A DNA stretch of 56,778 bases, from the IMG/VR virus record IMGVR_UViG_3300021431_003088; one strand, 5' to 3'. Shown one piece after another: positions 3,362 through 52,706 of this stretch. How positions within the stretch are numbered: position 1 is the stretch's first letter; each line of letters opens with the position of its first letter. The notes under the pieces were generated by a model. That model was not told the origin of the DNA. It ran no database searches and saw nothing but the letters and a program-made list of their open reading frames with translations. Source of the DNA: a virus (Duplodnaviria; Heunggongvirae; Uroviricota; Caudoviricetes). The position numbers were made by a program, and so were the translations under genes.

Positions 3362-3964
3362 TTAGCAATAAAACGACCTTGCTTGGTTGTTTACTGCGTT
3401 GATAATTGCCTCCTTACTTGCTTTGACATACTCTCTTACCTTGTTTCCGTACACTTTGTGTGCAAAGTTTGGTAATTTTGAGTATCTTTCGAAGATTTGA
3501 GTCATTACATACTCTTCACTTCTATCGTCGCTACCGTAGTTCCAATTATCGTAATATTCCCATCCTTTTTCTGTCACTTCTTTTATTTCAAAGTGGCAGG
3601 TTCCGTCGTGATGGGAACAGGTTAGGTGTAGGTGTCCGTTCACATCATAGATTTTGATATATCTACAATCTTTCGTGGCACTCTCGAATAACTTCCAGAA
3701 GTCCTTGTCTATCTTTCCGCCTCTGTAAACGCCATTCCACCTGCCTATCTCTCCGAAGAAAGCTATGTGTTTTACGCCAGCAAAAAACTTGTCTAGTTCT
3801 TCTTTTGCAATTTCCCACATTTCTTCTTCTACACGGTTCATTGCTTCGAAATATTCTTCTTCGGTATAATTTCCTTCATAATATTCCTCGCAATACCCCC
3901 TTGCGTCTTCTTCAAGTTCGTAATTTTGGAAAATTACTCTTTCCTTTGGTATAGTTGTACTCAT
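3362..3964 (-). CDS. Hypothetical protein (acidic, aromatic-rich)
   Basis: ORF with RBS AAGGAGGTG before ATG 3964. Confidence 0.75.
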   Translation of the reverse strand: MSTTIPKERVIFQNYELEEDARGYCEEYYEGNYTEEEYFEAMNRVEEEMWEIAKEELDKFFAGVKHIAFFGEIGRWNGVYRGGKIDKDFWKLFESATKDCRYIKIYDVNGHLHLTCSHHDGTCHFEIKEVTEKGWEYYDNWNYGSDDRSEEYVMTQIFERYSKLPNFAHKVYGNKVREYVKASKEAIINAVNNQARSFYC

Positions 3965-19775: not shown

Positions 19776-20912
19776 ATGGAATTTACAAAAACTGCTAAAA
19801 TCCAAATATATCCAAGTGAAATAGATAAGGCACTACTTATTGATACTATGAAATCATATGCTAATGCCTGTACTTTTGTGTCTAACTATATCTTTTCATC
19901 TAAGGATTTATCCCAAGCCTCTGTTCAGAAACATACATACGCTGATATAAGAAAAATGTATAATTTGCCTTCTCAGATGGCTTGTAATGTTGTTCGTACC
20001 GTTATAGGTTCTTATAAAACCAATAAAACAAACGGTTATGAATGGACTTTTTGTAAATACAATATTCCACAAGTTACTTTATCTTGGAATAGGGACTATT
20101 CTCTTACGCAAGATAAGTTTTCTATCGGTACGCTTAATGGTCGTATTAAATGTGACTATGCAATAAAGGGTATGGAAAAGTATTTTGATAAATCCATATA
20201 TACCTTTGGTGCTGCAAAAATTGTTTATAAGCACGACAAATTTTTCTTACATATATCAATCAAATATGATATTGATGCGCTTGAAGATACTGATGTTACT
20301 AATATCGTAGGTCACGATAGAGGTATTCGATTTTTAGTATCTTCTTATGATAGTAACGGCAAGACCACTTTTTATAGCGGTAACACCGTTAAGCAAAAAC
20401 GTGCTCATTATAAAACCTTAAGGAAAGAGTTACAACAAGTAAGGACTTCATCTTCCAGAAAACGTCTTAAAGCCATAGGTAAACGAGAAAACCGTTGGAT
20501 GCAGGATATAAACCACTGCATAGCTAAGGCACTCGTTGAAAATAATCCAGATGGCACTTTACACGTTTTAGAAGACTTGTCCAGCATACGTTCTGCGACT
20601 GAAAAGGTTCGTGTTAAGGATAAATATGTATCTGTTTCTTGGGCTTATTTTGACCTAGAAGAAAAACTTAAGTATAAAGCTCTTGAAAACAACCAAAAGG
20701 TTATTACTGTAAATCCTAAATACACTAGCCAAACTTGTCCTAAATGCGGTCATATTGAAAGCACCAACAGAAACAAAAGTAAACATATCTTTTGTTGTAA
20801 AAACTGTGGCTACACATCTAATGACGACCGCATAGGAGCTATGAACCTCTACCGTATGGGAATTGAGTACCTAGTAGAGTCACAAGTTAGTACATCTAAT
20901 TTGTGCAGGTAA
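19776..20912 (+). CDS. tnpB: RNA-guided endonuclease TnpB
   Basis: RuvC residues VGHDRG / LEDL / NDDRIGAMNL and zinc ribbon CPKCG...CKNCG are all present. Confidence 0.95.
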   Translation: MEFTKTAKIQIYPSEIDKALLIDTMKSYANACTFVSNYIFSSKDLSQASVQKHTYADIRKMYNLPSQMACNVVRTVIGSYKTNKTNGYEWTFCKYNIPQVTLSWNRDYSLTQDKFSIGTLNGRIKCDYAIKGMEKYFDKSIYTFGAAKIVYKHDKFFLHISIKYDIDALEDTDVTNIVGHDRGIRFLVSSYDSNGKTTFYSGNTVKQKRAHYKTLRKELQQVRTSSSRKRLKAIGKRENRWMQDINHCIAKALVENNPDGTLHVLEDLSSIRSATEKVRVKDKYVSVSWAYFDLEEKLKYKALENNQKVITVNPKYTSQTCPKCGHIESTNRNKSKHIFCCKNCGYTSNDDRIGAMNLYRMGIEYLVESQVSTSNLCR

Positions 20913-35344: not shown

Positions 35345-36271
35345 CTACGCTCTTAATGTTTTTTTGTAATCTTGTATCTTTCTTGTGTGCTTTTCCTCTA
35401 CTGTTTTTGCAATTTTGGGGAAGTATCTGTCAAGTAGGCCCGAAAAGAACAATTTATATCCCGTTTCCTCTAGCGTGAAGCTGGAGTTGTATTTGTTCTT
35501 GATGTTATATTTATCCTCTATCTCGATTGCGTAAATATCGCACACTTCTAGCTTGAAGCTCTCTGCTTCTAGCTTCGTTAATATATTTCTTCCTATTGCT
35601 TCATCTAACATAGCTGTTAGATTGGCTAGTATATCTACTTTCTCGTAGTCCTCTGAGTTTGAACCCTTATCTTCTAGCTCTACAGCACTCTCGTCTTTCT
35701 CTAGATTGGTATGTGTTACCTCTACGTCTGAGTTCTTCTGAAAGTAATATATCCAAAGTGCATCAAATGTACTTCTTAGTACATTTCCTGTGTAGTTATG
35801 CTTATTTAGGTACTCTAGCGCTTCCTCCTTGTGCGGGCTACACTCGTTTGCGTTACTTGTGTCTATCCCCGCTTCCTCGAAGTATTTCTTTATCAAGATT
35901 AAATATCTTTTTTGCGTATCGCTTATCTTCACTACACTTAGTTTTCTCGCTTCGTGGTACACATTGGTCGATACTTTTCGTGAGATATAGGTGCTATATT
36001 TTGCTTTTTCCTCATCATATTTATCTAGCACCTCTAGCTCTGGGTTTATGATTCTATTTAGGTAAATCTCCGAGCTTATGTCGTCTATCTTGTCTTGTGT
36101 GATACCTAGTGGCGATTTGCTTTTTATGTAGTTTCTCGTGACTATCTTTACATAATCATATGTTAGTGCGTCTACTTCTTCTTTCAGCGCCTTTTTCTTC
36201 TCTTCGTTTGTTTCTTTCTTGTACTCTATCGCTTTCTCATTTAGTTTTTCTGTTAATTCCTTTGAAGTCAT
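35345..36271 (-). CDS. Divergent sigma-70-family RNA polymerase sigma factor
   Basis: Region 2-like 'YDYVKIVTRNY...DDISSEIYL...LDKYDEEKAKYSTYISRKV' (compare KFDxxKGxKFSTYAxWWI); region 4-like 'LTKLEAESFKL...FTLEETG'; ATGA overlap with the upstream ORF at 36268-36271. Confidence 0.7.
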   Translation of the reverse strand: MTSKELTEKLNEKAIEYKKETNEEKKKALKEEVDALTYDYVKIVTRNYIKSKSPLGITQDKIDDISSEIYLNRIINPELEVLDKYDEEKAKYSTYISRKVSTNVYHEARKLSVVKISDTQKRYLILIKKYFEEAGIDTSNANECSPHKEEALEYLNKHNYTGNVLRSTFDALWIYYFQKNSDVEVTHTNLEKDESAVELEDKGSNSEDYEKVDILANLTAMLDEAIGRNILTKLEAESFKLEVCDIYAIEIEDKYNIKNKYNSSFTLEETGYKLFFSGLLDRYFPKIAKTVEEKHTRKIQDYKKTLRA

Positions 36272-36570
36272 ACGCAACTACCCCCGAAGAAACATTCCAT
36301 ATCGAAGTCTTCGTCTTCGTTTCTTACTGTTCTTAAGTCGGATTTGAAAAAGTGGTTCTTCTCAATACTACTTCTATTTCTCCTCTGCTTATCGTTATGA
36401 ATTTCATTCCAACCCCTCTCTATTACTAGCCGTGAAAATGCGGGTAGTGTTAGCTCGGGATTGCTCCTTACCAAGCATTTATACACTAGTTCCATGCTCC
36501 AGTTATAGTTACAATACAGCTCCCTTGCCTCTTCTAATGTGATCGCTTCTAAATAACCCTGTCCCTTCAT
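36268..36570 (-). CDS. Hypothetical 100-aa protein translationally coupled to the sigma gene
   Basis: RBS GAGGAGGAG before ATG 36570; stop overlaps the sigma ATG. Confidence 0.75.
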   Translation of the reverse strand: MKGQGYLEAITLEEARELYCNYNWSMELVYKCLVRSNPELTLPAFSRLVIERGWNEIHNDKQRRNRSSIEKNHFFKSDLRTVRNEDEDFDMECFFGGSCV

Positions 36571-38338: not shown

Positions 38339-39229
38339 TTAATTATTTCGTCTGGCAATTCGATTTACTACTCCAAATGCTAAGTGTGAGTTCTTATCCA
38401 TCTTTGTGCAGATGAAGATTACTTCGTCATTTATCTCTGGTAATGGTGTTGGTCCTGCGTACTGGTACGCTATAGCGTTTACTCCCGCTTTTAGTCTGAT
38501 ATAATATGTTGGGCCTTCTCGTCCAGTTACTGTGCCTAGATACCTGCCGTTGACCGAACAGTTGACATTATCCTGCTTCTTTAGAGATTTTGACTCCACC
38601 TCTATCTTTACTTCACCGTCTTCCTTGATCACAATCTTTTCCATTCGCACATCTAGCACTTGACCAATGAAGTATCTATCCCTTGCATTTGATATCCACT
38701 CCGGATCGAGCCTATTGCACCGTACAAAACACTCAGCTCCCATTACCTCTACTCGCACCGCTGTGTCACCTACGGCTGTTACTCTCGCTTCTACTATGTC
38801 GTTCTCATTGATTCGTGATTTGCCTTGCTTATTTGGTAAATAGTATTTCTCTATCTTTCTCTGCATTGCCTTGGCTCTTGAGCCAATACACTTTCTCTCT
38901 TTGTCATCATAGTCTGTTACTACAAAGTCAATGTCTGAACCTATCATTGATGACATGATTCGGGATATTCTCTCTTTTGAGGATTTCTCCCCAAGATTAA
39001 TATTCATCTCTGTCATAGGTATTACTACCCTATACCCATCGTAGTATGCTACACCTACTACAATGGACTCTGTTTTTGATATTCGCATTGGCTCTACTGA
39101 GTCCAACACTCCTGTTAGATACTCTTTCTTTGATTTCTTGGAAGTCTTTAATTCCTCCCAGGCCTTATCCGACTTATCCTTTGTCTTACTTCTTGTTCCG
39201 TCTGGATTGATTGTTATTACATTTTCCAT
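38339..39229 (-). CDS. Multi-S1-domain (ribosomal S1-like) nucleic-acid-binding protein
   Basis: About three OB/S1 repeats, e.g. 'VEARVTAVGDTAVRVEVMG...YFIGQVLDVRM'. Confidence 0.75.
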   Translation of the reverse strand: MENVITINPDGTRSKTKDKSDKAWEELKTSKKSKKEYLTGVLDSVEPMRISKTESIVVGVAYYDGYRVVIPMTEMNINLGEKSSKERISRIMSSMIGSDIDFVVTDYDDKERKCIGSRAKAMQRKIEKYYLPNKQGKSRINENDIVEARVTAVGDTAVRVEVMGAECFVRCNRLDPEWISNARDRYFIGQVLDVRMEKIVIKEDGEVKIEVESKSLKKQDNVNCSVNGRYLGTVTGREGPTYYIRLKAGVNAIAYQYAGPTPLPEINDEVIFICTKMDKNSHLAFGVVNRIARRNN

Positions 39230-39363: not shown

Positions 39364-41793
39364 TTATTTATTGAACCTTTTCTTGTTCTCTTTCTTGATT
39401 AGCGGTATCGCTCCCCTCTTTAATTCTACCGACATCTCTTCTATATCTTCCTCTGTGGCTTTGATTTTTAACTCGTTTACAGGGGTTGTCTTTAGTCCAT
39501 CTTTTATCTTTGGATTAAGTGGCTCACTAAATACTTTCTCTACCTGCTCGTCTGTTAACTTCTCTGCGTCCTTTGGTAGTTTTGTTGCTTTTCTCTGCGA
39601 GGTATTTTCTATTTCCTCGGAATATCTCTGTGAGACATTCCCTATTTCGTCTGCGTACCTTGTCTCTTTATATTTCTTACCCTTATCTAGCAACACGCCC
39701 TTTACTACGCTTATTTTTGCTTTGCTTTCCTCTTTTATCTCTATGCCATTAGGGTTTACCATCGCTAGTGGATTATCTGCTAATAATGGTTGTCCGTTTG
39801 GTGTTTTACCTTCTGCTTCATATTTCTTCTTTAGTTCTTTTACTTCCGCTATTAGCTTACTTCTACTTGCGCCATATTTCTCTGTGTCTACTACGCACAG
39901 TCTTGTCATCTCGCTTCCGTCACTATCCTTTAGGGCAGGTATTCTATCCGAGTCACTTCCTACTAGCTCTAGCCACTCATCTGTTGTGATTACTTTATCT
40001 TTCTCTACTATCTCTCCAGTCATTAAGTCCATGCCGTTTACTATTCGCCACTCAGGTACTAGCTCTGTTGATACTACCTTTCGCATTAGTAGTGCTTCGG
40101 GATGTCTACTATAATCGAATTTCTTTAGCTTGATTGGCATTTTCGCATTCACTTGGAGGTACAACTCGTCTGGTGGATACCTTCTTAGTTCATCCTCATA
40201 CTCTAGTGGACGTTGACCATCTCCTAGTGTGCCGCTTGGTGATGCTAGAAATCCTCTTGACTCTATCCTGTCGCTTCTTACCTTTTGAGTTGCATTTCCC
40301 ATTAGTGTTGAGAAGTATTTACTCGTTACCGGGTCGTTACAACCCAAGTAAAGACTATAGTTACAGCCACCCATTATCTCTGTCGCCATGTTCTCTGTGT
40401 AGCGATTATAGAATTGCGGGATATTCTGTATCATTATATGTATTCCTATGTCAAACGACCTTGCTACTCCCAGCTTCTGTGCAAAGCCATCTATATATCC
40501 GACGTTTGGGAACTCGTCTAGGAAAAATTCTACCGGTATATCACATCTTTGGTGTGGTGTTGATTGTGCATACTTGAAGATTGTGTCAAACAGCATTGTG
40601 ATGATGGTTGCTCCTAGCATATTATAGGTTTGGTCTGATGCACTCATAACCAAAAACAGTGCTGTCTTCTTCTTTGCTATATCCTCTAGGTTTATGTCTG
40701 CCTTTCCTGTTATCTCCCTCACTCTCTCTTCATTGAAGATTCTGAGTCTTGAGCCTAGACCTAGTATCGCATTTCCTTGATTTGAACTTGAGCCTGAGAA
40801 CAGTACGTAACATCCTACTGCCTCTGACATCGGGTTTTGCGCTCTTAATTGGTCAAACATTATGTTTAATTCGTCTGGCTTCTTTGTTCTTAGAAGTTTA
40901 TACGCTTCTCCTATATTCCTCTTACCTACTGGGTATGTTTCATACACATACCTACACAATGCTTCTAGAAGGATTGCTTCTATGTTATTGAAGAAATCTC
41001 CCGGCTTCGCATCACCTGAGTTATTTATGATTGTGTTTACAATGGTTGGTATCTTTTGCTCGTCCTCAAATTCGCCTAGTATATCCCAACCGTTTGAGTT
41101 CCACAAGTTTACTAGGTTCCATATTACTACATGGTAGCCCTTCTTCTTTAGGTATGCTGCACAGTCGCTTGTTAGCTCGGATTTCGTATCCATTATTACC
41201 ATTGAGGCTCCGCTTATCGCTCCCTGTATTATCATACCTCTGATTAAGCCTCTCGATTTTCCTGTGCCCTGCGAGCCTGCGCCAAAGATGTTTCTATTAG
41301 TTACCTCTGCGTCCCTTTTCATTGCTACTATCTTTCCATCTTCTGTTGTTCCAAAGATGAAACCTTTTGTTTCACACGCAGAGTCTACTACATCTAGAAA
41401 TTCGCTATATTCATAAGGTTTTAAATATTTACTTGATCCGTATGTGTCGTTCCCTGAATATGTTAGCTTCTTTACTGGATCATTCTCTTCGTCTGTTAAG
41501 TCTCTTACTACGAATACTAGTGACGCTATGCTTAAACCGATGAACGAGAAGATGGTTATAAACCTCCCCGTACTACTCGTGAACGCATACTTGAAACACT
41601 TTAGAAACTCTATATGACCATTATTCGCTCCAAACAGTTGCGCTAAAAACCCTCCTATTATGATTGACAGTGTTAGCAAGGCTATTAGGATGGTTATTAT
41701 TACTCGCTTTTTCTCTCTTAGTAGCTCCTTATAGTATTTTACAAGCTCCTTCTTATCCATCTTTTGCAGGCGCTTAAATAAACTATCTGTCAC
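39364..41793 (-). CDS. virD4: VirD4/TraG type IV coupling protein
   Basis: Two N-terminal TM helices, Walker A GSQGTGKS, Walker B FFLDEF, 'ARSFDIGIHIMIQ'. Confidence 0.95.
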   Translation of the reverse strand: MTDSLFKRLQKMDKKELVKYYKELLREKKRVIITILIALLTLSIIIGGFLAQLFGANNGHIEFLKCFKYAFTSSTGRFITIFSFIGLSIASLVFVVRDLTDEENDPVKKLTYSGNDTYGSSKYLKPYEYSEFLDVVDSACETKGFIFGTTEDGKIVAMKRDAEVTNRNIFGAGSQGTGKSRGLIRGMIIQGAISGASMVIMDTKSELTSDCAAYLKKKGYHVVIWNLVNLWNSNGWDILGEFEDEQKIPTIVNTIINNSGDAKPGDFFNNIEAILLEALCRYVYETYPVGKRNIGEAYKLLRTKKPDELNIMFDQLRAQNPMSEAVGCYVLFSGSSSNQGNAILGLGSRLRIFNEERVREITGKADINLEDIAKKKTALFLVMSASDQTYNMLGATIITMLFDTIFKYAQSTPHQRCDIPVEFFLDEFPNVGYIDGFAQKLGVARSFDIGIHIMIQNIPQFYNRYTENMATEIMGGCNYSLYLGCNDPVTSKYFSTLMGNATQKVRSDRIESRGFLASPSGTLGDGQRPLEYEDELRRYPPDELYLQVNAKMPIKLKKFDYSRHPEALLMRKVVSTELVPEWRIVNGMDLMTGEIVEKDKVITTDEWLELVGSDSDRIPALKDSDGSEMTRLCVVDTEKYGASRSKLIAEVKELKKKYEAEGKTPNGQPLLADNPLAMVNPNGIEIKEESKAKISVVKGVLLDKGKKYKETRYADEIGNVSQRYSEEIENTSQRKATKLPKDAEKLTDEQVEKVFSEPLNPKIKDGLKTTPVNELKIKATEEDIEEMSVELKRGAIPLIKKENKKRFNK

Positions 41794-42695: not shown

Positions 42696-43509
42696 CTAAA
42701 CTCACCCCCTGTACTTGTATTCCATTTGTTGTTGGTCTCTCTATCGTTATTGGACTTGTTGTTATTGGACTCTGCTGTGTCTGTATCTGTTGCATTTCTT
42801 GTTGCACCTCTGCTTCGCTTGGTTTTGTGTTTAGGTTGAACTTATTCCTTATTTTGTCGAAGATGTTTTCGTTATTGCTTTGACCTTCGATATTGATGTT
42901 GTAGTTCTCTTTATCTTCTCTACCTAGTTTTTTTGCTTTTTGATATGTGAAGTAATATGCCGCTAGGCTCTTATATGCATCTACCTCTGCATCACTAAAC
43001 TCGCTCTCTCCAGCACACGACATTCTTATTATTTGAAGTTGGCTTGGTGTGAAGAGATTTAAGAAAAACCTTTCTTTATTTTTGAAGGTTACTATATACA
43101 TCTTTGTGCGGATTTGGTTATTCGTTCCTATAACTGCGTCAACCTTCTCTTTTGGCCATACTGTTGTGTAATCAGATACTGTTACATTCATGTACTCTCG
43201 CCCATTAACTGTTTCCGCTGGCGATACCTTTACTTCATAGTCACCTTCGGCTATATTCATCTTCTTTGTTTCTATGTTCGCTTCGTTTATGGTTGGTACT
43301 ACCTCTTCTTTCTGGGATTTGTAATTTAGTACATTCACCAGTATCGTTATTCCTAGTATTGCTATGAATATTATGTAGTACACAGTCTTTATCTTGCCTT
43401 GTTTCTCTTTCTCGTCTTTTACTTGGTCAAAGACGCTTCGCTTCCTATCACCTCTATCTGCTTTTTCTCGTTTTAGTTTGCTCTTTATTCTTTCAGTATC
43501 TATCTTCAT
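42670..43509 (-). CDS. Bitopic membrane protein (possible T4SS channel accessory)
   Basis: Basic N-terminus, single TM, extracellular domain; first gene of the virD4 operon. Confidence 0.7.
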   Translation of the reverse strand: MKIDTERIKSKLKREKADRGDRKRSVFDQVKDEKEKQGKIKTVYYIIFIAILGITILVNVLNYKSQKEEVVPTINEANIETKKMNIAEGDYEVKVSPAETVNGREYMNVTVSDYTTVWPKEKVDAVIGTNNQIRTKMYIVTFKNKERFFLNLFTPSQLQIIRMSCAGESEFSDAEVDAYKSLAAYYFTYQKAKKLGREDKENYNINIEGQSNNENIFDKIRNKFNLNTKPSEAEVQQEMQQIQTQQSPITTSPITIERPTTNGIQVQGVSLDDHITISY

Positions 43510-43551
43510 TTCTTTCTTTCCTTTCGTATTTGATACTTGTTCTATATTACT

Positions 43552-43576
43552 TATATAAGTTGAGTGCGAAGTTTGG
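43552..43576 (-). promoter_or_regulatory. Full conserved promoter motif (virD4 operon)
   Basis: CCAAACTTCGCACTCAACTTATATA. Confidence 0.75.
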
Positions 43577-43618
43577 ATTTTCTCACTAAAAAAACCTGCG
43601 GTTTCCCACAGGCTTTCT

Positions 43619-44611
43619 CTATATATTTATTGGTTGCAATAGTACGTTCGGGTTGTTTATTATTTCCTCTATCTCTTCTTTATCCTCACTTGGTACATAC
43701 ACCTTTGTTACTGTTTTGGTTTTTGTCATTAGTTGCAAGGTTCCCGTATCGTAAGGGAAAAATATATTTACCCCTTCTTCGAGATTATTGCTTTCAATAA
43801 GTTCCTTTCTGATACTCTCTCTTTTATATAGCAGTGCCTCTATATGTTTTTTTCCTCGCTCTCCTATCGGCACATAAAAAGTGGAGTGATATGCACTTTC
43901 GTATGTGTGCCTCGTTGGTCGGATATAACTATCTATCGTTTTCTTTCGCTCGTGACTCTTGCTGTTTTTTATGATTTTGCGCAGTCCCTCTAAACCTTCG
44001 TCAAACACTATCTTCGAGTTCGCTATTTGCTCATATGGGGACAGCCTTTTATTTATTTCTGTTATCGTGAGTGCTTCTGTGTTCGGAGATAGTTTCTGGT
44101 TTCCATTTAGCATTGAGTACAGTCCGTAATACATATTTGTATTTGTTATTATCCCCTTACACGATATGCCGAGTATGTTATCGTATGCTGAAAGCTCCTG
44201 CTTGAAATACACCGAGGGAATGAATAGAGGTTTATTATCTAGTTCAAGCTTATCACTTATTGTTATATCATTTAGAAACATATCGGTTATGATTTGACTC
44301 TTACGACTTATTCTTATCATTGTCGCTTCATCCCAGTTATTCTTTTTCTTATACACCAACTCTCTTATCTCATTTGGTATCTCTTTCTCTCTTGCGTAAT
44401 TTATCCCTTTTGGTGTTGTTAAAAATAATGCGTGGGGCCTTACACCCATCTTTGTCTTTATGATATTTTTTCGACGGAGCTTTTCGATTGAATATTCTGC
44501 TCTCTTTCCGAATGCTTTTATTAGATCACTCCTTGTTACTCTATTTTCGTTTAATGCCATTATGGTTATGAAGTTATCCCACAGACCATATTCACTTGGC
44601 TTATATCTCAT
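43619..44611 (-). CDS. Winged-helix protein, possibly replication-relaxation (Replic_Relax)-like
   Basis: N-terminal 'VTRSDLIKAF...IEKLRRKNII...LFLTTPKG' wHTH pattern; the family assignment is weak. Confidence 0.4.
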   Translation of the reverse strand: MRYKPSEYGLWDNFITIMALNENRVTRSDLIKAFGKRAEYSIEKLRRKNIIKTKMGVRPHALFLTTPKGINYAREKEIPNEIRELVYKKKNNWDEATMIRISRKSQIITDMFLNDITISDKLELDNKPLFIPSVYFKQELSAYDNILGISCKGIITNTNMYYGLYSMLNGNQKLSPNTEALTITEINKRLSPYEQIANSKIVFDEGLEGLRKIIKNSKSHERKKTIDSYIRPTRHTYESAYHSTFYVPIGERGKKHIEALLYKRESIRKELIESNNLEEGVNIFFPYDTGTLQLMTKTKTVTKVYVPSEDKEEIEEIINNPNVLLQPINI

Positions 44612-44639
44612 CTTTTTTCTCCTTTGTATCGGTAGTTTT

Positions 44640-44945
44640 GTTAAGTGGTGATTTAATTATTAATTGCTCTTTTATATCTTTTGAGTCGGCAGGTATGCCG
44701 AGCTGTCTTTATTTTTTATTGGTTCGTTTTGTGCTTTTGGCTCGGGTGGTGTTTTTAGTTTTCTGTGAAAGAGCGACACCGTAACACACCACGCCGTTAT
44801 CTAGGTTCAACTGACTATCTGTTTTTTCAATCGCAAGAATGTCATCTAAGCCCTTGATTTTACACCTCTTCCGACTTGTGTTTTTTCAAAATTGCAATAT
44901 CGTTGCAGGGTATAGTTTTTAAAAACTCGGCTTTTCAAGATTTTT
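44640..44945. other. Intergenic region with clustered inverted repeats (candidate oriT or protein-binding region)
   Basis: TCGGCA-GGTA-TGCCGA (44686), GTGGTGT/ACACCAC, TGCAA-TATCG-TTGCA (44893), AGTTTTTAAAAACT (44914); no known nic match recognised. Confidence 0.3.
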
Positions 44946-44956
44946 CATACCCTATT

Positions 44957-45598
44957 CTAGTCTATATTTTCAATAATAATTGTTGTTTTTCGCTTTCCAG
45001 TAATTGCTCCTTTGTGAGTGTGGAACAACATATCGCCTCGATCTGAAAGGATAAAACCATAGGTTTGCAGGGTATCAATTATGCGTTTACATTCCACATT
45101 ATCGTTGTCACAGCACTTCTCTTTCGAGGCATATTCGTGAATAAAAGTTATGTGAGCTTTTTCTTTTTGATGGTCTACTTTCCAAGAATTAAACTCTTTA
45201 GTACGAGAAAATTTTCCAAGTTCGTACGAGAGAGTTGATAAGAAAAATGGTTGCGAGTCAATATTTCGTGTTTGTAAATTAATCTTTGGAATAGTGATTT
45301 TAATTTTATTATTTTCAAAAATACTAATCTCAATACCGAGATTTTCGGCTACCTTTTTTAATTGAGTTTCAGCCCAAAGTATGTCATCTTTTGATAGGAT
45401 ACTTTGTGCTTTATACTTCTCAAAGTGATTTATATTAACTTCTTGTGTATTACAAATAAGTTGTGATAGAAGTTCAAATTGTTCTTTATAATTATCTTTT
45501 GCGTAAACAAGTTCCTCAAGATTTTCTGCAATTTTCACATTGGCATACGCAAGTTCTTTTAACTCATTTGCCATAGCAAATTCTTCTGATTTGTTCAT
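44957..45598 (-). CDS. DUF6100-like protein
   Basis: 'KAHITFIHEY...DNDNVECKRIIDTL...ILSDRG' recalls DUF6100 (RusA-like DxDN motif) of clostridial conjugative elements. Confidence 0.5.
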   Translation of the reverse strand: MNKSEEFAMANELKELAYANVKIAENLEELVYAKDNYKEQFELLSQLICNTQEVNINHFEKYKAQSILSKDDILWAETQLKKVAENLGIEISIFENNKIKITIPKINLQTRNIDSQPFFLSTLSYELGKFSRTKEFNSWKVDHQKEKAHITFIHEYASKEKCCDNDNVECKRIIDTLQTYGFILSDRGDMLFHTHKGAITGKRKTTIIIENID

Positions 45599-45599
45599 A

Positions 45600-46196
45600 T
45601 TAACCTCTCAGCATTTTAGCGAAAACAGTATTAATTTCTTCACTATCATCACTTTCAATTTTGATTTCTTCTCTTACTTTCTCTTTTTTAGTTTCCATTT
45701 TTTCAGATGATTCGTCTCTTTTTTGAGTATCGTCCGGCTCTATCTCCATCTCTTTTTTCTCTTCGTGAGGAGGTATGGATTTTTCTGAGTCTTCATTTTC
45801 CCTGTCGAGCTTTTCTTCCTTTGGTGTTTTGTAATTATTCATCTTGGAAGTCATATCTAGTTCACTAATTGATTGTGTGTTTTTTGTTTCTTGAAGGGAT
45901 TGTGCAGAAGACTTTGCTGGGTTAAACATCACCTTTGTAACTACTGTTCCGTCATTCTTTTTTTGTCTTTTAAGATATCCTGCCTCACGCAATTTATTTA
46001 ATATAGTCCCTGCTTTATCCTTTCCTATTCGAGCCACATTAGAAATATTTTCGATTGTGACAGAGCAATCATCTGGCAAACAGTTAATCATATAGTAAAC
46101 ACCTTTTTCTTCGGGCGAAAGGTTTTTATCATACGCTGCTTGTAGTCCAATTATTGTTGCATCTGTATCCTTTACTAAACTCTTTACTTGCTTCAC
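45600..46196 (-). CDS. Helix-turn-helix DNA-binding protein with acidic low-complexity tail
   Basis: 'LSPEEKGVYYMINCLP...TIENIS..ARIGKDKAGTILNKLREAGYL' wHTH. Confidence 0.75.
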   Translation of the reverse strand: MKQVKSLVKDTDATIIGLQAAYDKNLSPEEKGVYYMINCLPDDCSVTIENISNVARIGKDKAGTILNKLREAGYLKRQKKNDGTVVTKVMFNPAKSSAQSLQETKNTQSISELDMTSKMNNYKTPKEEKLDRENEDSEKSIPPHEEKKEMEIEPDDTQKRDESSEKMETKKEKVREEIKIESDDSEEINTVFAKMLRG

Positions 46197-46220
46197 TTAA
46201 TATTTCTCCTTTTTGTTTTT

Positions 46221-46244
46221 TATATAAGTTTAGTGCGAAGTTTG
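46221..46244 (-). promoter_or_regulatory. Full conserved promoter motif (HTH-DUF6100 operon)
   Basis: CAAACTTCGCACTAAACTTATATA; overlaps the last codons of the upstream gene. Confidence 0.75.
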
Positions 46245-46595
46245 ACCTTTCATTAGCTGGTTCTTTCGCTTAATTTCTTCTTTCTGTTCCTCTAATCTTT
46301 CCATTTCTTCGTACAAATATTGGATGGCTCTTACTAGTTTTTCTGCCTTTTCTGTGCCAGCTTTAGCGTAGGCAAAGCCTGCCCTGTTAACTGAAAAGTG
46401 AACACCGTTAATGATACAAAATTCTCCGTGCTTACCTCTAGTAGTTCCGATAGTCCAGAAGCCTTTCCCATCTACAGGGATAGAAACATATCCGTTTCTA
46501 ACCTCCATATACTGACCAAGTTTAATGTATCCATTAATGCTATATCTAAGTATTCTATTGTCGCCTGCTTTTAATATTTGAAAGTTCTTGTACAT
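46230..46595 (-). CDS. Hypothetical protein (121 aa)
   Basis: RBS GAAGGAG before ATG 46595. Confidence 0.75.
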   Translation of the reverse strand: MYKNFQILKAGDNRILRYSINGYIKLGQYMEVRNGYVSIPVDGKGFWTIGTTRGKHGEFCIINGVHFSVNRAGFAYAKAGTEKAEKLVRAIQYLYEEMERLEEQKEEIKRKNQLMKGQTSH

Positions 46596-46714
46596 TTGTC
46601 TGTCTCCTTCATACAATATATAGGGGCTATAATTTTTGTGCCTCTATATATATTGTATTCATTTTTTTTAAAATCACATACGTTTTGAAAAAAAATTTTG
46701 CACTTTATATATTA

Positions 46715-47181
46715 TATATGTCTATATTAAAGATATACTTGGTTACGACTAATCTTAAATAGCTTAGCATTGTAGGAAACGGCTTGCTTAAAGGGCAGAA
46801 TTTCCCCATGCGAACATGAAGAAATTCCACTCCCAAATAACTTAGCACCGTTAGTATTCCGTATTGCTATAATGGTTGGCTCTCAATTTTGTAAGTATCT
46901 CAACTTACATATTCCGTATCTCCTCAGCCGTCTCATTGGAACTAACGGAACACCCCTTAATTACGGCTTCCTGTAGCAAAAGCTACTCCCCAAACACAAT
47001 TTTTTTATATGCTTTACTTGGTTGTCTGTTATGCATTGAGGACAAAAGGTTAAAGAGAGCATTTATCCTTTCGCCCGTTGATTTTATATTTAGGCTCAAC
47101 ACACCGACCACAGTTTATGTCTGCAAAGGTCATATTAGACAATTCATATTTTATTTTATGCAAACACTCTTTGCGAGTGCA
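46715..47181 (-). ncRNA. Candidate large structured ncRNA (~470 nt)
   Basis: TTTACA-17-TAAACT promoter (47216-47188); at least 10 stems, with G-U wobbles favouring the minus strand; UUCG-capped hairpin; nested long-range helices; no credible ORF. The 3' boundary is approximate. Confidence 0.6.
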
Positions 47182-47363
47182 AATATTAGTTTATCGTTTG
47201 TCTTTGCGTTTGTAAAGTGGTTTGTTTTTATAAAACCGTGGAAAATTTATTAAATTTTGTTAAGTTTTTACAAATGTAAAAATTAGGATTGTTGATTTTT
47301 CGTTAGAGAGCAGTTTGTTTAAGAAAGAAATTAGTGTAGAATTTTGTTAGAATTAACAAAAAT

Positions 47364-47400
47364 AAAAAAAATAGAGGCCAGCGTTGATATGCTGACCTCT
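47364..47400 (-). terminator. Intrinsic terminator of ssb-sak3 operon
   Basis: AGAGGTCAGC...GCTGGCCTCT plus T-run. Confidence 0.8.
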
Positions 47401-47414
47401 AACAATATTAAGTT

Positions 47415-48311
47415 TTATGCTGATTTCTCAGCTTCTGCAAGGATTATTCTTGCAGCCTCTCTCATTGCTTCATCATTTCCCTTGTAGGAATTAGCGATGA
47501 AATCAAGTTGAGAGATTCGGCCTTCTCCGAAGAGCTGACCGATTGTCTTGCCTGCGACATCTTTTCCTGTTAGCGAACAGGGTACAATGCTTGCTTCCTC
47601 TACATTATTAGGAAGTTTCACAGGTTTCTTTGTTTTAGGCTTAGGTGCCTCTGGCTCTGTAGCCTCTGCCTCTGTAGCCTCTGCTTCAGCTTTTCCGTAC
47701 TTTTCAAGGATTTGGTCCTTGTGTTGTACTAGGTTATCAAGCTCTTTATCAGAAAACTCATCAAGTGAGTTATGCTTATAAAGCTCAATAACAGCCTTTG
47801 CATCTGAACAAGAATTTAGCACTTCGAGTGCTTCCTTCTTCTTCTTTGCAATGGCTTTTGCCTTTGCATCAGCCTCTTTTTTTGCCTTGGCTTCAGCTTC
47901 CTTCTTTCCCTCTTCCTTTTCAGAAGTAGGAATATCCTCTCCGGCATAGATATATAATCCTAATCCATGACGGGCGATGGCTTTTACTAAGCCTCTCTGC
48001 AATGAATCATTAACCTCACGGCTATTGATTTGTTCCAGAGGTATTGCGTTATTTCTATTATCCATAATTGGATAATATTCAATGAGCTCCTGCCCATCTA
48101 CAGTCACGCCTACTTTAACCCAAGCTGTTGCACCGTCTGTGTGGTAGCACCAGCCATTCTCATTTTCGTAGACCTTATACGTTGCATCAGGGTATCTCTT
48201 TTTAAGTTCTCCCCATGCGAAAGCCCACGAGAGGTATGTGAACTTACCCTTCTTTTCAGTTTTATCGTTCACGTTAATACTCTCTAATGTTTCGAATACG
48301 CTTTTTTCCAT
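47415..48311 (-). CDS. Sak3/DUF1071 single-strand annealing protein (Rad52-like)
   Basis: 'FETLESINVNDKTEKKGKFTYLSWAFAW...QRGLVKAIARHGLGLYIYAGEDIP'. Confidence 0.9.
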   Translation of the reverse strand: MEKSVFETLESINVNDKTEKKGKFTYLSWAFAWGELKKRYPDATYKVYENENGWCYHTDGATAWVKVGVTVDGQELIEYYPIMDNRNNAIPLEQINSREVNDSLQRGLVKAIARHGLGLYIYAGEDIPTSEKEEGKKEAEAKAKKEADAKAKAIAKKKKEALEVLNSCSDAKAVIELYKHNSLDEFSDKELDNLVQHKDQILEKYGKAEAEATEAEATEPEAPKPKTKKPVKLPNNVEEASIVPCSLTGKDVAGKTIGQLFGEGRISQLDFIANSYKGNDEAMREAARIILAEAEKSA

Positions 48312-48376
48312 ATTCTTCCTCCTTTAAAAAGAGAGGGGCTTATAGCCCCTCATTACCTAAGACACAAAATCCCTTT

Positions 48377-48799
48377 TTATACAAAAGGTAGTGTGTCTTC
48401 TGTTACATCTTCACCAACTGGATTGAATCCATCAGCGTCAGCGTTTGTTGCTGGTGCAGGTGCAGGTGCAGCTTCACCCTGAGCCTTCTTGCTCTCAGCA
48501 AACTCAACTGAAAGTGCAACGATTTGATCCTGATATACAGTCTTTCCGTCTTTTTCGTAGTTGTTATTACGAAGTTCTCCTTCGATAACAACCTTAGTAC
48601 CTTTGTGTAGGTACTTCTCTACGAATGTCGCAGTATTGCCAAACGATACAAGATTGAAGAAATCAGTTGGATAATTTCCATTCTGATCCTTATACTTTCT
48701 ATCTATTGCGATAGAATAACGTGCGACAGGCTTGTTATCATTGCCATATCTAACTTCCGGATCTCTTGTAAGACGTCCCATTAAAATAACTTTATTCAT
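48377..48799 (-). CDS. ssb: Single-stranded DNA-binding protein
   Basis: MNKVILMGRLTRDPE..., KGTKVVIEGEL, acidic tail ending EDTLPFV; RBS AAGGAGG. Confidence 0.95.
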   Translation of the reverse strand: MNKVILMGRLTRDPEVRYGNDNKPVARYSIAIDRKYKDQNGNYPTDFFNLVSFGNTATFVEKYLHKGTKVVIEGELRNNNYEKDGKTVYQDQIVALSVEFAESKKAQGEAAPAPAPATNADADGFNPVGEDVTEDTLPFV

Positions 48800-48916
48800 A
48801 TTTTTCCTCCTTGAACAAAGCGTCCTCTCAGCCACATTTGAGAGGGTTAATTCATCACAAATGTAATATGTGGCGAATTAAAGAGCGAAATTTCACTCTT
48901 TCAATAATTACTTTTA

Positions 48917-48927
48917 TATATAAGTGG
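48917..48927 (-). promoter_or_regulatory. Core-only motif upstream of ssb (other core-only copies: 3285, 4877, 5078, 12397, 56514 on minus; 9933, 36976 on plus)
   Basis: CCACTTATATA(TAAAAG) without the CAAACTTCGC box. Confidence 0.55.
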
Positions 48928-48946
48928 TTTTTTTTGAAAAAGTCGT

Positions 48947-48969
48947 AAACTTCGCACTAAACTTATATA
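48947..48969 (+). promoter_or_regulatory. Full conserved promoter motif in plus orientation
   Basis: AAACTTCGCACTAAACTTATATA, 35 bp before a plus-strand gene. Confidence 0.75.
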
Positions 48970-49003
48970 AAAATAAAAGAAAGGAATAAAAAAGGAATTT
49001 ATT

Positions 49004-49690
49004 ATGAAAAAATCATTTATTTATCCTGCTGTTGTAGTATTAACTACTACTCTTTCGCTAATACCTTTTAATAGTTCTAGTCTTTTTAGCACAACTACTG
49101 CAAACACCAAGGTTGAAGTAGAAACAGTCGAAGAAAGACAAGAAGACACAAGCGAAACTGATGCTAAGAAAGAGGCTGAAGAGAAAGCCGAAAAAGAAAG
49201 AGCTGAAAAAGAAAAGGAAGAAGCGAAAGAAGCTGAGGAAAAGAAGGCACAGGAGAAAGAGAAAGCTGAAAAGGAAGCAAAGGAAAAAGCAGAAAAGGAA
49301 GAAAGCGAGAAAAAAACCGTATCTTCAGCATTCCCAGCACAATCTGTTAGTAATTCTGTAATTGAGCCTAATGGATTGCATGATGTTTTTGTATTTGCAG
49401 AACAACCCGAAAATGAAGATTTTAGAAATGCTTCAATTTATATGTTGAATACTGGGGAAACTGATGCAAATAAGGTTTTATCTGCTAATTGTGGAGTAAA
49501 ATACAACGACAATGATGTAAAGGTCAACAAGCAAACTAAATATACATTTGGGCTTTCTGAAAGAGAGATTAATGCAGCCATAGACCAATTAAAATATAAG
49601 AGAATAGAGTCAAAGAATTATGGTATTGCATTAAGGGTTGTGGAGTCTAATGGAATGTATTTGTTTGAAATGATTGAAATATACGAATAA
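49004..49690 (+). CDS. Secreted protein with Lys/Glu-rich stalk
   Basis: Signal peptide; KEAEEKAEKE repeats; small globular C-terminus; terminator at 49716-49752. Confidence 0.8.
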   Translation: MKKSFIYPAVVVLTTTLSLIPFNSSSLFSTTTANTKVEVETVEERQEDTSETDAKKEAEEKAEKERAEKEKEEAKEAEEKKAQEKEKAEKEAKEKAEKEESEKKTVSSAFPAQSVSNSVIEPNGLHDVFVFAEQPENEDFRNASIYMLNTGETDANKVLSANCGVKYNDNDVKVNKQTKYTFGLSEREINAAIDQLKYKRIESKNYGIALRVVESNGMYLFEMIEIYE

Positions 49691-49756
49691 AACTCATTAA
49701 GCATCAAAAATAATAAGACAGCTCCAATTTTTCTAAGAGGAGCTGTCTTTTTATCT

Positions 49757-50362
49757 CTAGTGAATTTTAAATTCTTGTTTATAATTAATATTTTCTAGCT
49801 TTTTCTTTTTTAAGAACTGTGTTGCCAACATAAGTATAAGTGATATATTTTCTATGATATTTTGTGAAAACAGTCCTATTCTATCAACTTCAAAATTTAC
49901 CAACAATCTTCCCTGTAATACTATAGTTGAAATTAGTAAACCATAGCTTACTGCTTGAAAAGCCTCTACTTTTTTGTTCTTGCATTCGTGCTTTATAGAA
50001 AGCATATTATTGCATATAATAATAATACTCATGAAAGTAACAAGCCAAGTGGATAGTGTCTGTGGCACTATACTTAATAAGTTACTATTCTCTCCCTTAA
50101 ATATTGATATAAGTATTAGTATAATATTTAATCCGATAGTTGCTACTGATATAAGTAGCTGTGATTTGTATATCATAGTAAGCTGAGCATTATTTATTCT
50201 AGCGTTTTCATCTTTAATATAATTATTTTTATTGATTTCTTCCTTAAGGTTTATCTCTTTTAATTTTTTAAATTTCTCAATAAAGGGCTCATATCTTTTA
50301 ATTGTTGCGTCTTTTTCAGACTTAATCATTTTTCTTTCTGATTCAAATAGTTTCTTTTTCAT
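49757..50362 (-). CDS. Hypothetical polytopic membrane protein
   Basis: ATG 50362; four TM helices; AT-rich. Confidence 0.65.
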   Translation of the reverse strand: MKKKLFESERKMIKSEKDATIKRYEPFIEKFKKLKEINLKEEINKNNYIKDENARINNAQLTMIYKSQLLISVATIGLNIILILISIFKGENSNLLSIVPQTLSTWLVTFMSIIIICNNMLSIKHECKNKKVEAFQAVSYGLLISTIVLQGRLLVNFEVDRIGLFSQNIIENISLILMLATQFLKKKKLENINYKQEFKIH

Positions 50363-50456
50363 AAAATATTTCCTTTCTAAAAATATAGGAGCATATTGCA
50401 AGGCTAGGGAAGTACAATATGCTCCACTACATCAGTGAATGATGCTTTTTCCTTTT

Positions 50457-50480
50457 TATATAAGTGTAGTGCGAAGTTTG
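50457..50480 (-). promoter_or_regulatory. Full conserved promoter motif
   Basis: CAAACTTCGCACTACACTTATATA. Confidence 0.75.
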
Positions 50481-50482
50481 AA

Positions 50483-50707
50483 TTATCCAATGTGGAATAC
50501 TGTACTAATAAAACTTCTGCACATATAAATCAAGTCTGCTATTTGACTTTGTTGGTTGAATATTACGCCTATTGCATATATTCCCGCTATTGCGCCAATA
50601 ATATATCGTGCTTTACCCTTAATCATTATGAAAATCACAATAAATATTGCGATAAGAATAATTGTTACAGCTAAGTTTCCTCCAAATATTGCATTAATTA
50701 TCTCCAT
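50483..50707 (-). CDS. Small membrane protein
   Basis: Two TM helices; RBS GAGGAGGAG; directly after recG. Confidence 0.7.
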   Translation of the reverse strand: MEIINAIFGGNLAVTIILIAIFIVIFIMIKGKARYIIGAIAGIYAIGVIFNQQSQIADLIYMCRSFISTVFHIG

Positions 50708-50708
50708 A

Positions 50709-52706
50709 TTACTCCTCCTCTACATACTCAAAGTGTTCATTGTATGCATCCATTAACTTATTTCCATAATTATGTTCGATGCAATACTTTGCACAATCAT
50801 GTGCCTCCTTGTATATATAAGAGAAATTAATTAATTCGTCCACATATTTGTTGAATCCGTGTTGTTTTGTTCCAACTATATCACCAGCTCCACGTATTTT
50901 CATATCTTCTTCTGCGATTTTGAAGCCATCATTGGTTTCGCACATAATATCTATCTTTTTGTTCTTTTCATAACGGTTAGCGATTAAGTAACAATATGAT
51001 TGATAATCACTTCTTCCTACTCTGCCTCGAAGTTGATGCATTGAAGCAAGACCAAATTGTTTTGCTTGTTCGATAATCATAAGGGTTGCATTAGGGATAT
51101 TAACTCCTACTTCAACTACTGTAGTAGAAATAAGTATATCAAGCTCTTTTTCTTCAAATTTTCTAATTGTTTCGTCAATATCGTTTTGCTTCATTTTTCC
51201 GTGCATAGCACCTATTTTAATGTTGGTGCCATAAAACATTTTATTGTATGCCCTAATTGTTTCCTCTACGGAGATTAAGTTATTATCATCATCCTCTTCT
51301 ATTGCAGGGCAAACTACATATACCTGATGCCCCTTTTTTATTTGTTCTAAAATCACCTTTTTTACTTCTTCTCTTTGTTCTACGGTTTCAGTAATTATGT
51401 CTTTTCTTCCTGCTGGTTTTTCCTTTATCTCGAAGATTTCTTTATTATCTCCATATAAAACACCGAGTAAGGTTCTGGGAATTGGCGTAGCGGACATTGA
51501 TAAGCTATGTATTCCTGTATCTGCTTTTTCTTCTAGGGCTTTCTTTTGATTAACTCCAAATAGGTGTTCTTCATCGGTTATAACTACGCCAAGATTGTTG
51601 TATTCAACCTTTTCGCTAAAGCAAGCATGGGTGCCGACAATAATCTTTATATGTCCGTCTTTAATACCTTTTTGCACTTCTTTTTTCTCTTTTGCGGTTA
51701 AATCACCGCCAAGATATGCTATCTCTATATTTAGCTTTTCAGCATATCCCTTTATTTCTTCAAAGTGCTGTTTTGCCAGTACACTTCTTGGAGCTATAAA
51801 TACAGATTGATAATCGTTAGAAGCAGCCATCATCATTAAGCACATAGCGACAACTGTTTTTCCACAGCCAACATCTCCCTGCAAAAGCATATTTATTCTA
51901 TTGTTTCTGTTCTTAAAACTTTCGACTACTTTCTTTTGATCCGATGTTAATTCGTATGGCAATATCTTGATAAAATCGTTTAATAATGTTGTGCTATCAA
52001 ATTTAATGTCCGAGTCTTTGTTAGAATCCCATTTTTCATTTTGCATTATACTTAGGCTTGTAAAAAGTAAGTCATTAAATACTATGCGTTTAAAAGCACA
52101 ATTTGCCAGTTTTCTTCCCGTAGGTTTATGTAATTCTCTTACTGCACTTGTGTAAGGCATTAAATTATATTTCTTCACAACTTCTGGTTCAAGTATTTCT
52201 TCACATTGGTTTAAGGCTGTTTCAATAGTGCCACGTAGATTTTTATCGGATACGCCTTGCACTTTAGAGTAGATTGTTTCTATCTTTTTTTTGAATTTAT
52301 TGCTTTCTACTACATACATAGGGTTAGCGAAACTCACCCATCCATCATTCAAACTTATTTTCCCTGCTACTATCATTTGTTCATTTGTTAAGTAGAGAAG
52401 TTTGTTATACATCCACTCCATGCCAAATAGAAAAACACTAAAGGTTTCTCTTCTCTTAGTTCTGAGTTTTAGATATACATATCTTTTCTGTTTTCCTTCT
52501 CTTTTATCAACTTCTACCAGAGTGGCTTGAATTGCATAATTTTTTCCATCACAAATATCCTCTATTTCGTCAATACTTTCATATACTTTTCTAAAATCTA
52601 CATACTTTCTTGGCCTTAAATCTTCTAATAGGTCTTTAGTAGTATATATTTTCTTTTTTGCGAGTGCATTGCTTGTTCTAGTTGTTGAAGTGTCTTTTAA
52701 ATTCAT
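50709..52706 (-). CDS. recG: ATP-dependent DNA helicase RecG
   Basis: N-terminal wedge/OB domain; LLQGDVGCGKT, DEEH, SATPIPRT, STTVVEVGVN, HQLRGRVGR, DMKIRGAGD. Confidence 0.93.
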   Translation of the reverse strand: MNLKDTSTTRTSNALAKKKIYTTKDLLEDLRPRKYVDFRKVYESIDEIEDICDGKNYAIQATLVEVDKREGKQKRYVYLKLRTKRRETFSVFLFGMEWMYNKLLYLTNEQMIVAGKISLNDGWVSFANPMYVVESNKFKKKIETIYSKVQGVSDKNLRGTIETALNQCEEILEPEVVKKYNLMPYTSAVRELHKPTGRKLANCAFKRIVFNDLLFTSLSIMQNEKWDSNKDSDIKFDSTTLLNDFIKILPYELTSDQKKVVESFKNRNNRINMLLQGDVGCGKTVVAMCLMMMAASNDYQSVFIAPRSVLAKQHFEEIKGYAEKLNIEIAYLGGDLTAKEKKEVQKGIKDGHIKIIVGTHACFSEKVEYNNLGVVITDEEHLFGVNQKKALEEKADTGIHSLSMSATPIPRTLLGVLYGDNKEIFEIKEKPAGRKDIITETVEQREEVKKVILEQIKKGHQVYVVCPAIEEDDDNNLISVEETIRAYNKMFYGTNIKIGAMHGKMKQNDIDETIRKFEEKELDILISTTVVEVGVNIPNATLMIIEQAKQFGLASMHQLRGRVGRSDYQSYCYLIANRYEKNKKIDIMCETNDGFKIAEEDMKIRGAGDIVGTKQHGFNKYVDELINFSYIYKEAHDCAKYCIEHNYGNKLMDAYNEHFEYVEEE

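Follow-up and report, generated by a model that had tools for sequence, protein, structure and literature searches.

The 56,778-nucleotide (nt) stretch of DNA analysed here (IMG/VR record IMGVR_UViG_3300021431_003088, referred to as the window) belongs to a large conjugative sheep-rumen plasmid that carries almost all of its genes on the minus strand. Downstream of ssb and of a gene for a Sak-type annealing protein (sak), we found a conserved, strand-specific folded element belonging to no known family, which to judge by its sequence most likely represents a new RNA of the plasmid. The conserved core covers positions 46791-47131 of the minus strand (341 nt), a closing helix extends the unit to 46774, and we put the size of the conserved element at about 340-360 nt. 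That it is a real, conserved structured element is highly probable, and we lean slightly towards its acting as an RNA. Whether the core with its helix to 46774 acts as an RNA of an undescribed family is close to an even call. We propose more tentatively that it represents a new family of branched, possibly pseudoknotted RNAs of about 350 nt from conjugative megaplasmids of rumen Clostridia, one among several unrelated folded elements in the same ssb-adjacent slot. The original prediction, made from the window alone, had placed a large non-coding RNA of about 470 nt at 46715-47216; a conserved fold of several helices, specific to the minus strand, was supported, whereas the conserved extent turned out shorter, as given above, and part of the proposed fold was wrong.

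Evidence for conservation came from the two nearest full-length relatives of the Sak protein (55-57% identical), which led to the contigs L126 and L128. The latter, a second sheep-rumen plasmid, carries the sole diverged homologue of the element (L128:3292-3609; nhmmer E-value 2.4e-54; blastn identity 72.6% over 350 nt), located after a terminator in a gap of 1.2 kilobases (kb) that follows ssb, sak and two small genes. The two cores are 77.8% identical over aligned pairs, a higher figure than that of ssb (73%), of sak (60%) or of the 200-nt flanks (46-56%). L126 exhibits the same gene order with unrelated sequence in the gap, and the window and L128 each have a different gene after the element. 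A 119-kb contig and four further contigs were found to encode the identical Sak protein next to an unchanged element and added no variation. The gap between the sak terminator and the next open reading frame (ORF) is devoid of an ORF common to the homologue. The two copies have no open frame in common, and since the core is nevertheless conserved in L128, we regard the element as conserved non-coding sequence. A coding role for the core was ruled out by this lack of a shared frame, by substitutions without codon periodicity and by insertions and deletions between the copies that include lengths of 1, 2 and 4 nt, several of them not multiples of three.

The shuffle control proposed along with the prediction came out in its favour. 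Against shuffled sequences, the 502-nt stretch outlined originally yields a z-score of -2.63 on the minus and -1.25 on the plus strand, and the single-sequence fold of the core reaches -3.82 in the window and -3.72 in L128 on the sense strand, compared to -1.04 and -1.41 on the antisense strand. The consensus fold of both copies has an energy of -70.2 kcal/mol versus -38.5 kcal/mol (standard deviation 4.6) in 200 column shuffles, which preserve the conservation pattern; none of the 200 reached the observed value (z-score -6.9), while the antisense consensus fold gives a z-score of -3.8. In the 70-pair RNAalifold model, about one sixth of the pairs are wobble pairs, double changes affect seven pairs and changes via G-U a further eight, and not one of these 15 variable pairs is broken. 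Pair shuffles matched the covariation of the model in 4 of 500 cases, seven or more double changes occurred in 7 of 200 column shuffles, and displacing the pairing partners by one to three columns left zero to one double change. As the consensus structure was derived from the same two sequences, each sequence's own fold was evaluated as well. Here, one-sided changes that preserve pairing numbered 11 and 9 on the sense strand versus 2 and 3 on the antisense strand, which identifies the sense (minus) strand as the structured one and agrees with the earlier claim that G-U pairs make the fold specific to this strand. For two sequences, the element thereby displays the generic hallmarks of a structured RNA, namely a conserved fold and compensatory changes beyond controls. 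A covariance model, R1, was built from the window and L128 copies; its scores of 415.6 and 375.5 bits for these same two sequences follow from the way it was constructed.

In the proposed model, a 5' domain comprising helices P1-P4 would be followed by a 3' domain in which two closing helices surround the hairpins P7, P8 and P9 (Table 1). The best-supported helices are P7 with three compensations and P8 with two, followed by P9, P2, P3 and P4 with one each. P7 combines its three compensated pairs with one wobble change among nine pairs, over an invariant inner stem. In P9, the compensated pair is accompanied by two wobble changes and a loop that differs between the copies, and four of its G-U pairs would be C-A on the opposite strand. 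P4 contains one pair changed on both sides and one changed via wobble, whereas covariation of P1 cannot be assessed because its sequence is invariant in both copies. The closing helix AAGGGG/CCCUU is unchanged in L128, and the counterpart of AGGAAGC/GUUUCCU reads GGA[C]GC/GCUCC there, with five pairs and one bulge; this counterpart is not covered by the core alignment (A3), and the check on it was manual only. Both closing helices of the 3' domain can therefore form in L128, as they had been drawn.

Two short motifs in the joining region, GAGAGC (46884-46879) and CAAUACG (46866-46860), may connect the 5' domain, through the P3 loop and one P2 strand respectively, to the 3' domain. The candidate pairing of the P3 loop with GAGAGC comprises six pairs, one of which changes from G-C to G-U. 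The U-to-C change in P2 fits a rival long-range pairing with CAAUACG equally well, and two sequences do not distinguish between these pairings since the covarying position is common to both. The half of the joining region adjacent to P9 is poorly conserved.

Table 1. Features of the element and of its surroundings in the window (positions and strand as in the window).
Feature	Position	Strand	Description
recG, ssb and Sak-type annealing protein gene	upstream of element	minus	plasmid encodes a full RecG
ssb	48377-48799	minus	
Sak annealing protein gene	47415-48311	minus	
Intrinsic terminator of ssb-sak operon	47372-47401	minus	eleven-pair stem, then T run
Weak promoter-like site	47134-47163	minus	TTGCAT, 18 nt, TCTAAT; abuts core
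P1 hairpin	47106-47131	minus	GACC..GCA / UGU..GGUC
P2 hairpin	47073-47104	minus	GUGUGUUGA / UCAACGGGC; one compensated pair, U-A to C-G
P3 hairpin	47040-47076	minus	GGGCGA...UUGUCC; loop GCUCUC at 47060-47055; one compensated pair, G-C to A-U
P4	46988-47041	minus	CCUCAAUGCAU with GUGUUUGGGG over A-rich loop; ten RNAalifold pairs
GUAGC-UUUU-GCUAC hairpin	46973-46986	minus	window only; within 15-nt L128 deletion
3' domain	46774-46972	minus	closed by AGGAAGC/GUUUCCU (46972-46966 with 46780-46774) and AAGGGG/CCCUU (46958-46953 with 46795-46791)
P7	46909-46953	minus	GUGUUCCGU/ACGGAAUAU (46953-46945 with 46917-46909); inner stem UUCC..GAG / CUGAGGAG
P8 hairpin	46890-46909	minus	UGUAAGU / ACUUACA; in L128 UGUAACC/GGUUACA; two compensated pairs
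Joining region	46831-46889	minus	largely unpaired in model; contains GAGAGC and CAAUACG
P9 hairpin	46795-46830	minus	GUGGAAUUUCUUCA / UGGGGAAAUUCUGC, 14 pairs
Palindrome	46611-46658	minus	ATACAATATATA...TATATATTGTAT; just before ribosome-binding site of 121-amino-acid ORF; repeats I5, I8
121-amino-acid ORF	46230-46595	minus	first gene downstream of element
Private promoter copy	~46221		after 121-amino-acid ORF
198-amino-acid HTH_36 protein	45600-46196	minus	matches phage replication-initiator and O-like PHROGs, E-values 2e-10 to 1e-5
330-amino-acid protein	43619-44611	minus	weak lead to Replic_Relax (PF13814) from a language model (score 0.87, too low for more than a lead)
Coupling protein	39364-41793		last gene of its operon; transfer genes then follow
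Sigma-like gene	35345-36277		~10 kb downstream of element
Good sense-strand intrinsic terminators in transfer array	26522-26491, 18891-18863, 18588-18568, 12453-12432, 11383-11359	minus	
Rep3 initiator and parA	53-56 kb		Rep3 initiator ~8 kb from element

All hairpins listed in the original prediction are present where it had placed them. The UGUAAG/CUUACA hairpin (P8) and the one drawn at 46797-46828 (P9) were substantiated by the compensated pairs described above. The hairpin at 47165-47179 is present in the window but not conserved in L128, and the GUAGC-UUUU-GCUAC hairpin, although equally present, is lost in the L128 deletion and hence looks dispensable. A long-range helix CCGUUAGUUCC/GGAAUACUAACGG had to be abandoned, with three of its eight pairs broken in L128 and the local P7 with its three compensated pairs taking its place. 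Two copies of the motif UGCUAAGYUAUUU are indeed present, at 46847-46835 and 46769-46757, and both lack conservation.

A cmscan of 46400-47500 against Rfam 15 yielded no match at gathering score. Even at E-values up to 10, none of the large RNAs named in the original prediction appeared, and the only match inside the core was CRISPR-DR6 with 15.2 bits and an E-value of 7.6; in view of this missing Rfam 15 match, the element is not ROOL, GOLLD or OLE, and the families covered by the negative result include group II intron domains and plasmid antisense RNAs. Like these RNAs, raiA and HEARO, it is a large multi-helix non-coding element on a Firmicutes mobile element; unlike ROOL, GOLLD and OLE it is smaller, and it matches none of the five in Rfam. 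Searches with blastn against 72,556 plasmids and against phages gave no match. Among 120 Sak-anchored loci from genome and viral collections, blastn and nhmmer detected no further copy, nor did the covariance model in 100 of these loci. Viral contigs, scanned three times by exact pattern, yielded no homologue, and of two such scans of metagenome contigs one was empty and the other returned two high-GC soil contigs as chance matches. Contigs reached through SSB turned out to represent chromosomal rpsF-ssb-rpsR loci, a phage, or Rep3 plasmids lacking the element, and 399 Clostridia genomes contained only chance matches of 20-45 nt. In L126 and in L152, a Rep3 plasmid contig, the covariance model produced weak and unconvincing matches only (8-12.6 bits, E-values 0.006-0.16). 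For the full-length Sak protein, which marks the plasmid group, a profile search of 1.84 billion representative proteins showed just one cluster (50% identity), which indicates that the group is rare in public data. Three metatranscriptome runs from the same sample contained no plasmid sequence over 43000-51000 save cross-matches to ssb of other organisms, and accordingly say nothing on expression.

As to what the element does, a function as cis-acting leader or antiterminator is the most plausible, albeit still on the doubtful side, and is suggested by analogy to two known systems. Transcription would start at the weak promoter directly before the core, past the ssb-sak terminator, and would continue without an intervening terminator into the 121-amino-acid ORF and then into the co-oriented replication-initiator-like, DNA-processing and transfer genes. 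The folded leader would work in cis on transcription or on the transcript, as do the conAn2 RNA of pLS20 and the canT RNA of Tn916. Transcription of the element, its start and end points and any effect on the downstream genes are inferred. The ssb-sak operon is closed by an intrinsic terminator, and a terminator likewise lies upstream of the L128 copy (2816-2834), so that the element, if it is an RNA, needs a start of its own. A promoter-like site appears to lie directly before the core in both copies, the aligned site in L128 (3260-3289) reading TTGCCA-18-AATAAT and scoring 10/12. The sigmaA-like promoter proposed originally (TTTACA-17-TAAACT, 47216-47188) scores 9/12, in a stretch where promoter-like sites are no commoner than in shuffles, and is not conserved. 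The private promoter ACTTATATA was not found upstream of the element. No sense-strand terminator was detected between the core and the downstream genes, nor from 46999 to 27000, and the element heads about 46 kb of co-oriented genes.

Three observations favour RNA over single-stranded DNA as the active form: the wobble content, the weak fold obtained with DNA parameters (-43 kcal/mol, compared to -106 kcal/mol as RNA) and the lack of resemblance to the single-strand origin of pTA1060. The upstream terminator together with the putative promoter abutting the core in both copies would favour RNA as well, while the strand asymmetry fits RNA and single-stranded DNA alike.

Both conAn2 and canT are large cis-acting leader RNAs of 260-600 nt that head Gram-positive conjugation operons and are poorly conserved (PMC8191782, PMC11658703). 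conAn2 of pLS20 and other Gram-positive conjugative plasmids, at 260-600 nt, acts together with the protein ConAn1 (PMC8191782, PMC8955417); its long inverted repeats around a central region, short GC-rich block and stem-loops are features defined on pLS20 alone (PMC8191782). The element shares with conAn2 its nature as a large non-coding stretch near the head of a long series of co-oriented conjugation genes on a Firmicutes plasmid, and its proposed action in cis as a folded RNA would be of the same kind. Given the very poor conservation of conAn2 between plasmids, no sequence similarity to it is expected. conAn2 follows the conAn1 gene within the same transcript, whereas the element is preceded by a terminator and about 240 nt of AT-rich DNA without a small ORF (no ConAn1 sequence was compared). 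Inverted repeats of 20 base pairs around the whole element, as in conAn2, were not found, the seven-pair helix 46972-46966/46780-46774 closing the 3' domain only, and in contrast to conAn2 the genes downstream of the element have promoters of their own. For canT, a 452-nt fragment was tested and shorter ones were still active; its action is protein-independent, orientation-specific and in cis (PMC11658703). By description, with no sequence comparison involved, the element resembles canT in its similar size, and an orientation-specific RNA working in cis with no partner protein would suit it; Tn916 moreover uses a sigma factor of its own. It differs in its position, as canT is found immediately after the sigma genes orf7-orf8 and works once Tn916 has excised and circularised, while the sigma-like gene of the window is found about 10 kb downstream of the element. 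Taken together, the fit to conAn2 and canT is a loose analogy.

Several points weigh against a transcribed leader. The covariation statistics are thin, as there are only two distinct sequences and the structure was derived from them. The promoter-like site of the window, found by eye, is poor, its TCTAAT lacking the A at position 2, and the element possesses neither a terminator of its own nor a defined 3' end. Antitermination is not obviously needed, because the downstream operons have private promoters after internal terminators: by coordinates, copies at 26447, 18416, 18010 and 12397 lie downstream of four of the five terminators in the transfer array. No ConAn1-like gene precedes the element, and the gene downstream of it is not the same in the window and in L128. 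Finally, SSB, the annealing protein, RecG and the replication-initiator-like protein all handle single-stranded DNA, a neighbourhood that suits a role at the DNA level too.

Such a role would be that of a single-strand origin or primosome-loading site, which folds on the transferred or displaced strand and primes synthesis of the complementary strand, as do sso1 of ICEBs1 and the ssoT, ssoU and ssoA cassettes of rolling-circle plasmids. The original prediction had put forward a single-strand origin as one alternative, and we retain it as the main rival, though a rather unlikely one. The orientation-specific fold would be compatible with it, as G-T pairs are tolerated in DNA (z-scores with DNA parameters of -2.04 on the minus and -0.92 on the plus strand), and so would the missing terminator and the location among the single-stranded-DNA and replication-fork genes ssb, sak, recG and the replication-initiator-like gene. 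sso1 of ICEBs1 is similarly placed, in a gene gap beside DNA-processing genes, and is active in one orientation (PMC4595007). Related plasmids were furthermore found to hold unrelated, strongly folded elements in the same slot (z-scores -4.8 in L126 and -7.7 in L147). Rolling-circle plasmids carry interchangeable sso cassettes, which these slot elements resemble; equally, they recall the very low conservation of conAn2. Although the element shares with sso1 and with ssoT of pTA1060/pBAA1 its strand-specific fold in a gap of a conjugative element near DNA-processing genes, those origins consist of about 200 nt with three Watson-Crick stem-loops, whereas the element, with about 340 nt and a branched domain closed over a long range, is larger, more ornate and rich in wobble pairs. 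The proven single-strand origin of pTA1060 is built from perfect Watson-Crick repeats and folds equally on both strands (z-scores -3.6 and -4.6), while the element depends on wobble pairs for its fold, whose stability drops sharply when modelled as DNA. No similarity to this origin was found by sequence, nor by model R1 run with filters off on pTA1060 6250-6650, and the plasmid blastn search described above was likewise negative. Pfam, NCBIfam, PHROGs and a protein atlas revealed neither a relaxase nor an oriT in the window that would set the transferred strand.

A single-stranded-DNA promoter, the other DNA-level alternative raised originally, is disfavoured. Frpo-type promoters form one long hairpin on the strand that serves as template for their genes and mimic -35 and -10 boxes. 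The element is comparable to Frpo/ssi of the F and IncI1 leading regions as a strand-specific folded element close to ssb on a conjugative plasmid, but its fold is branched and is located on the strand that is sense, not template, for ssb, sak and all genes downstream.

Instead of leading the transfer genes, a free-standing RNA could have another job, either acting in trans with SSB, the annealing protein or RecG, or serving as an R-loop primer in the manner of RNA II of ColE1. The structural evidence would be the same as for a leader, and the element accompanies ssb-sak, not the downstream gene, which differs between window and L128. Proteins for RNA-DNA hybrids are moreover encoded nearby in this plasmid group, namely RecG in the window and a protein with an RNase H hybrid-binding domain beside ssb in L152. 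We nevertheless consider a free-standing RNA unlikely, as nothing ties it to a target, a terminator or other defined 3' end is lacking, and the origin would be expected at the Rep3 gene about 8 kb away if the plasmid is built like L147 and L152 with iterons beside rep. A double-stranded DNA site, such as oriT or another protein-binding region with the hairpins as inverted repeats for a relaxase or accessory protein, is very improbable: the element does lie upstream of the operon that ends in the coupling protein gene and includes the weakly Replic_Relax-like protein, and GGTGTGTTGAG follows P1 in a hairpin-then-single-strand layout that we take to resemble nick regions, but conservation spans about 340 nt rather than a short nick region, many helices need wobble pairs available on one strand only, one-sided changes preserve pairing on that strand alone, no relaxase was identified in the window and the Replic_Relax match stays below the level at which the tool offers more than a lead. 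A lack of any function takes the small remainder.

Large folded RNAs of unknown function are few, and Firmicutes mobile elements account for most of them. Recent work showed that pLS20 and Tn916 require a large leader RNA for expression of their transfer genes (PMC8191782, PMC11658703), and if the element is a leader, a third and unrelated family of such RNAs, on a rumen plasmid, would suggest that leader RNAs are general in Gram-positive conjugation and have been missed by sequence searches. It would also offer a compact element for testing the control of gene transfer in the rumen. If it is one of several unrelated RNAs that occupy the slot beside ssb, it would point to a cassette-like class of large plasmid RNAs that is overlooked because each family is rare and fast-evolving. 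Should it prove to be a single-strand origin instead, it would be of a new type, on a theta-replicating conjugative plasmid.

Regarding the genes around the element, the plasmid SSB is about 80% identical to chromosomal SSBs encoded in rpsF-ssb-rpsR operons of rumen and gut bacteria, e.g. GCA_002392865.1, a likeness that hints at the host lineage and at a recent capture of a host gene. The Sak protein ends in an additional conserved domain (VVPCSL...GKT.GQLFGEG...IA..YKG), and this C-terminal region used as query matched itself only. The 121-amino-acid ORF gave no match in Pfam, NCBIfam, PHROG or tblastn against plasmids and is missing from L126 and L128. It is followed by the HTH_36 protein and then by three proteins of unknown function, one of them the weak Replic_Relax lead; the 198- and 330-amino-acid proteins may represent DNA-processing genes. 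A 296-amino-acid protein with an S1 RNA-binding domain (38339-39229, minus strand) is encoded directly after the coupling protein, and a TnpB-type gene (OrfB_IS605 with a Cas12f1-like TNB domain; 19776-20912, plus strand) sits on the opposite strand within the transfer region.

The palindrome between element and 121-amino-acid ORF was not scored as a terminator since it lacks a subsequent T run. In the related plasmids too, the first gene after the gap is preceded by AT-rich palindromes or direct repeats, ACAATATATA being found in the window (46611-46658) and TTGTAAATATCTTGTAA in L126 (6384-6412) and L128. In L128, TTGTAAATATCTTGTAA repeats are located at 3775-3810, and an additional set at 2856-2890 marks the upstream end of the gap, just after the upstream terminator. 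These palindromes and repeats may be operator sites.

Three related plasmids have different, strongly folded elements beside ssb, and the slot merits a systematic look. L126 carries, after ssb-sak, about 600 nt of unrelated and strongly folded sequence (L126:5730-6330, plus strand; z-scores -4.8 sense and -3.5 antisense), in which the short anchors ACTTTAGGATAGCCA and TGCCCTAAG recur in the same order as in the gap element of L152 (4213-4443). In L147, a related Rep3 plasmid, about 570 nt directly after ssb (L147:6430-7030, plus strand) give z-scores of -7.7 sense and -6.2 antisense and end in a classic intrinsic terminator; this stretch has no sequence similarity to the element of the window and gives the impression of either an extended, structured 3' region or an RNA in its own right. 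Rfam 15 returned no match in L126, L128, L147 or L152. The hybrid-binding protein of L152 (4850-5803, plus strand; Cauli_VI, PF01693) is encoded directly before ssb, and both it and the RecG of the window act on RNA-DNA hybrids. Repeat units of TTAAGAATTTTGTCGGA, probably replication-origin iterons, were found beside the Rep3 genes of L147 (4360-4620) and L152 (3640-3830).

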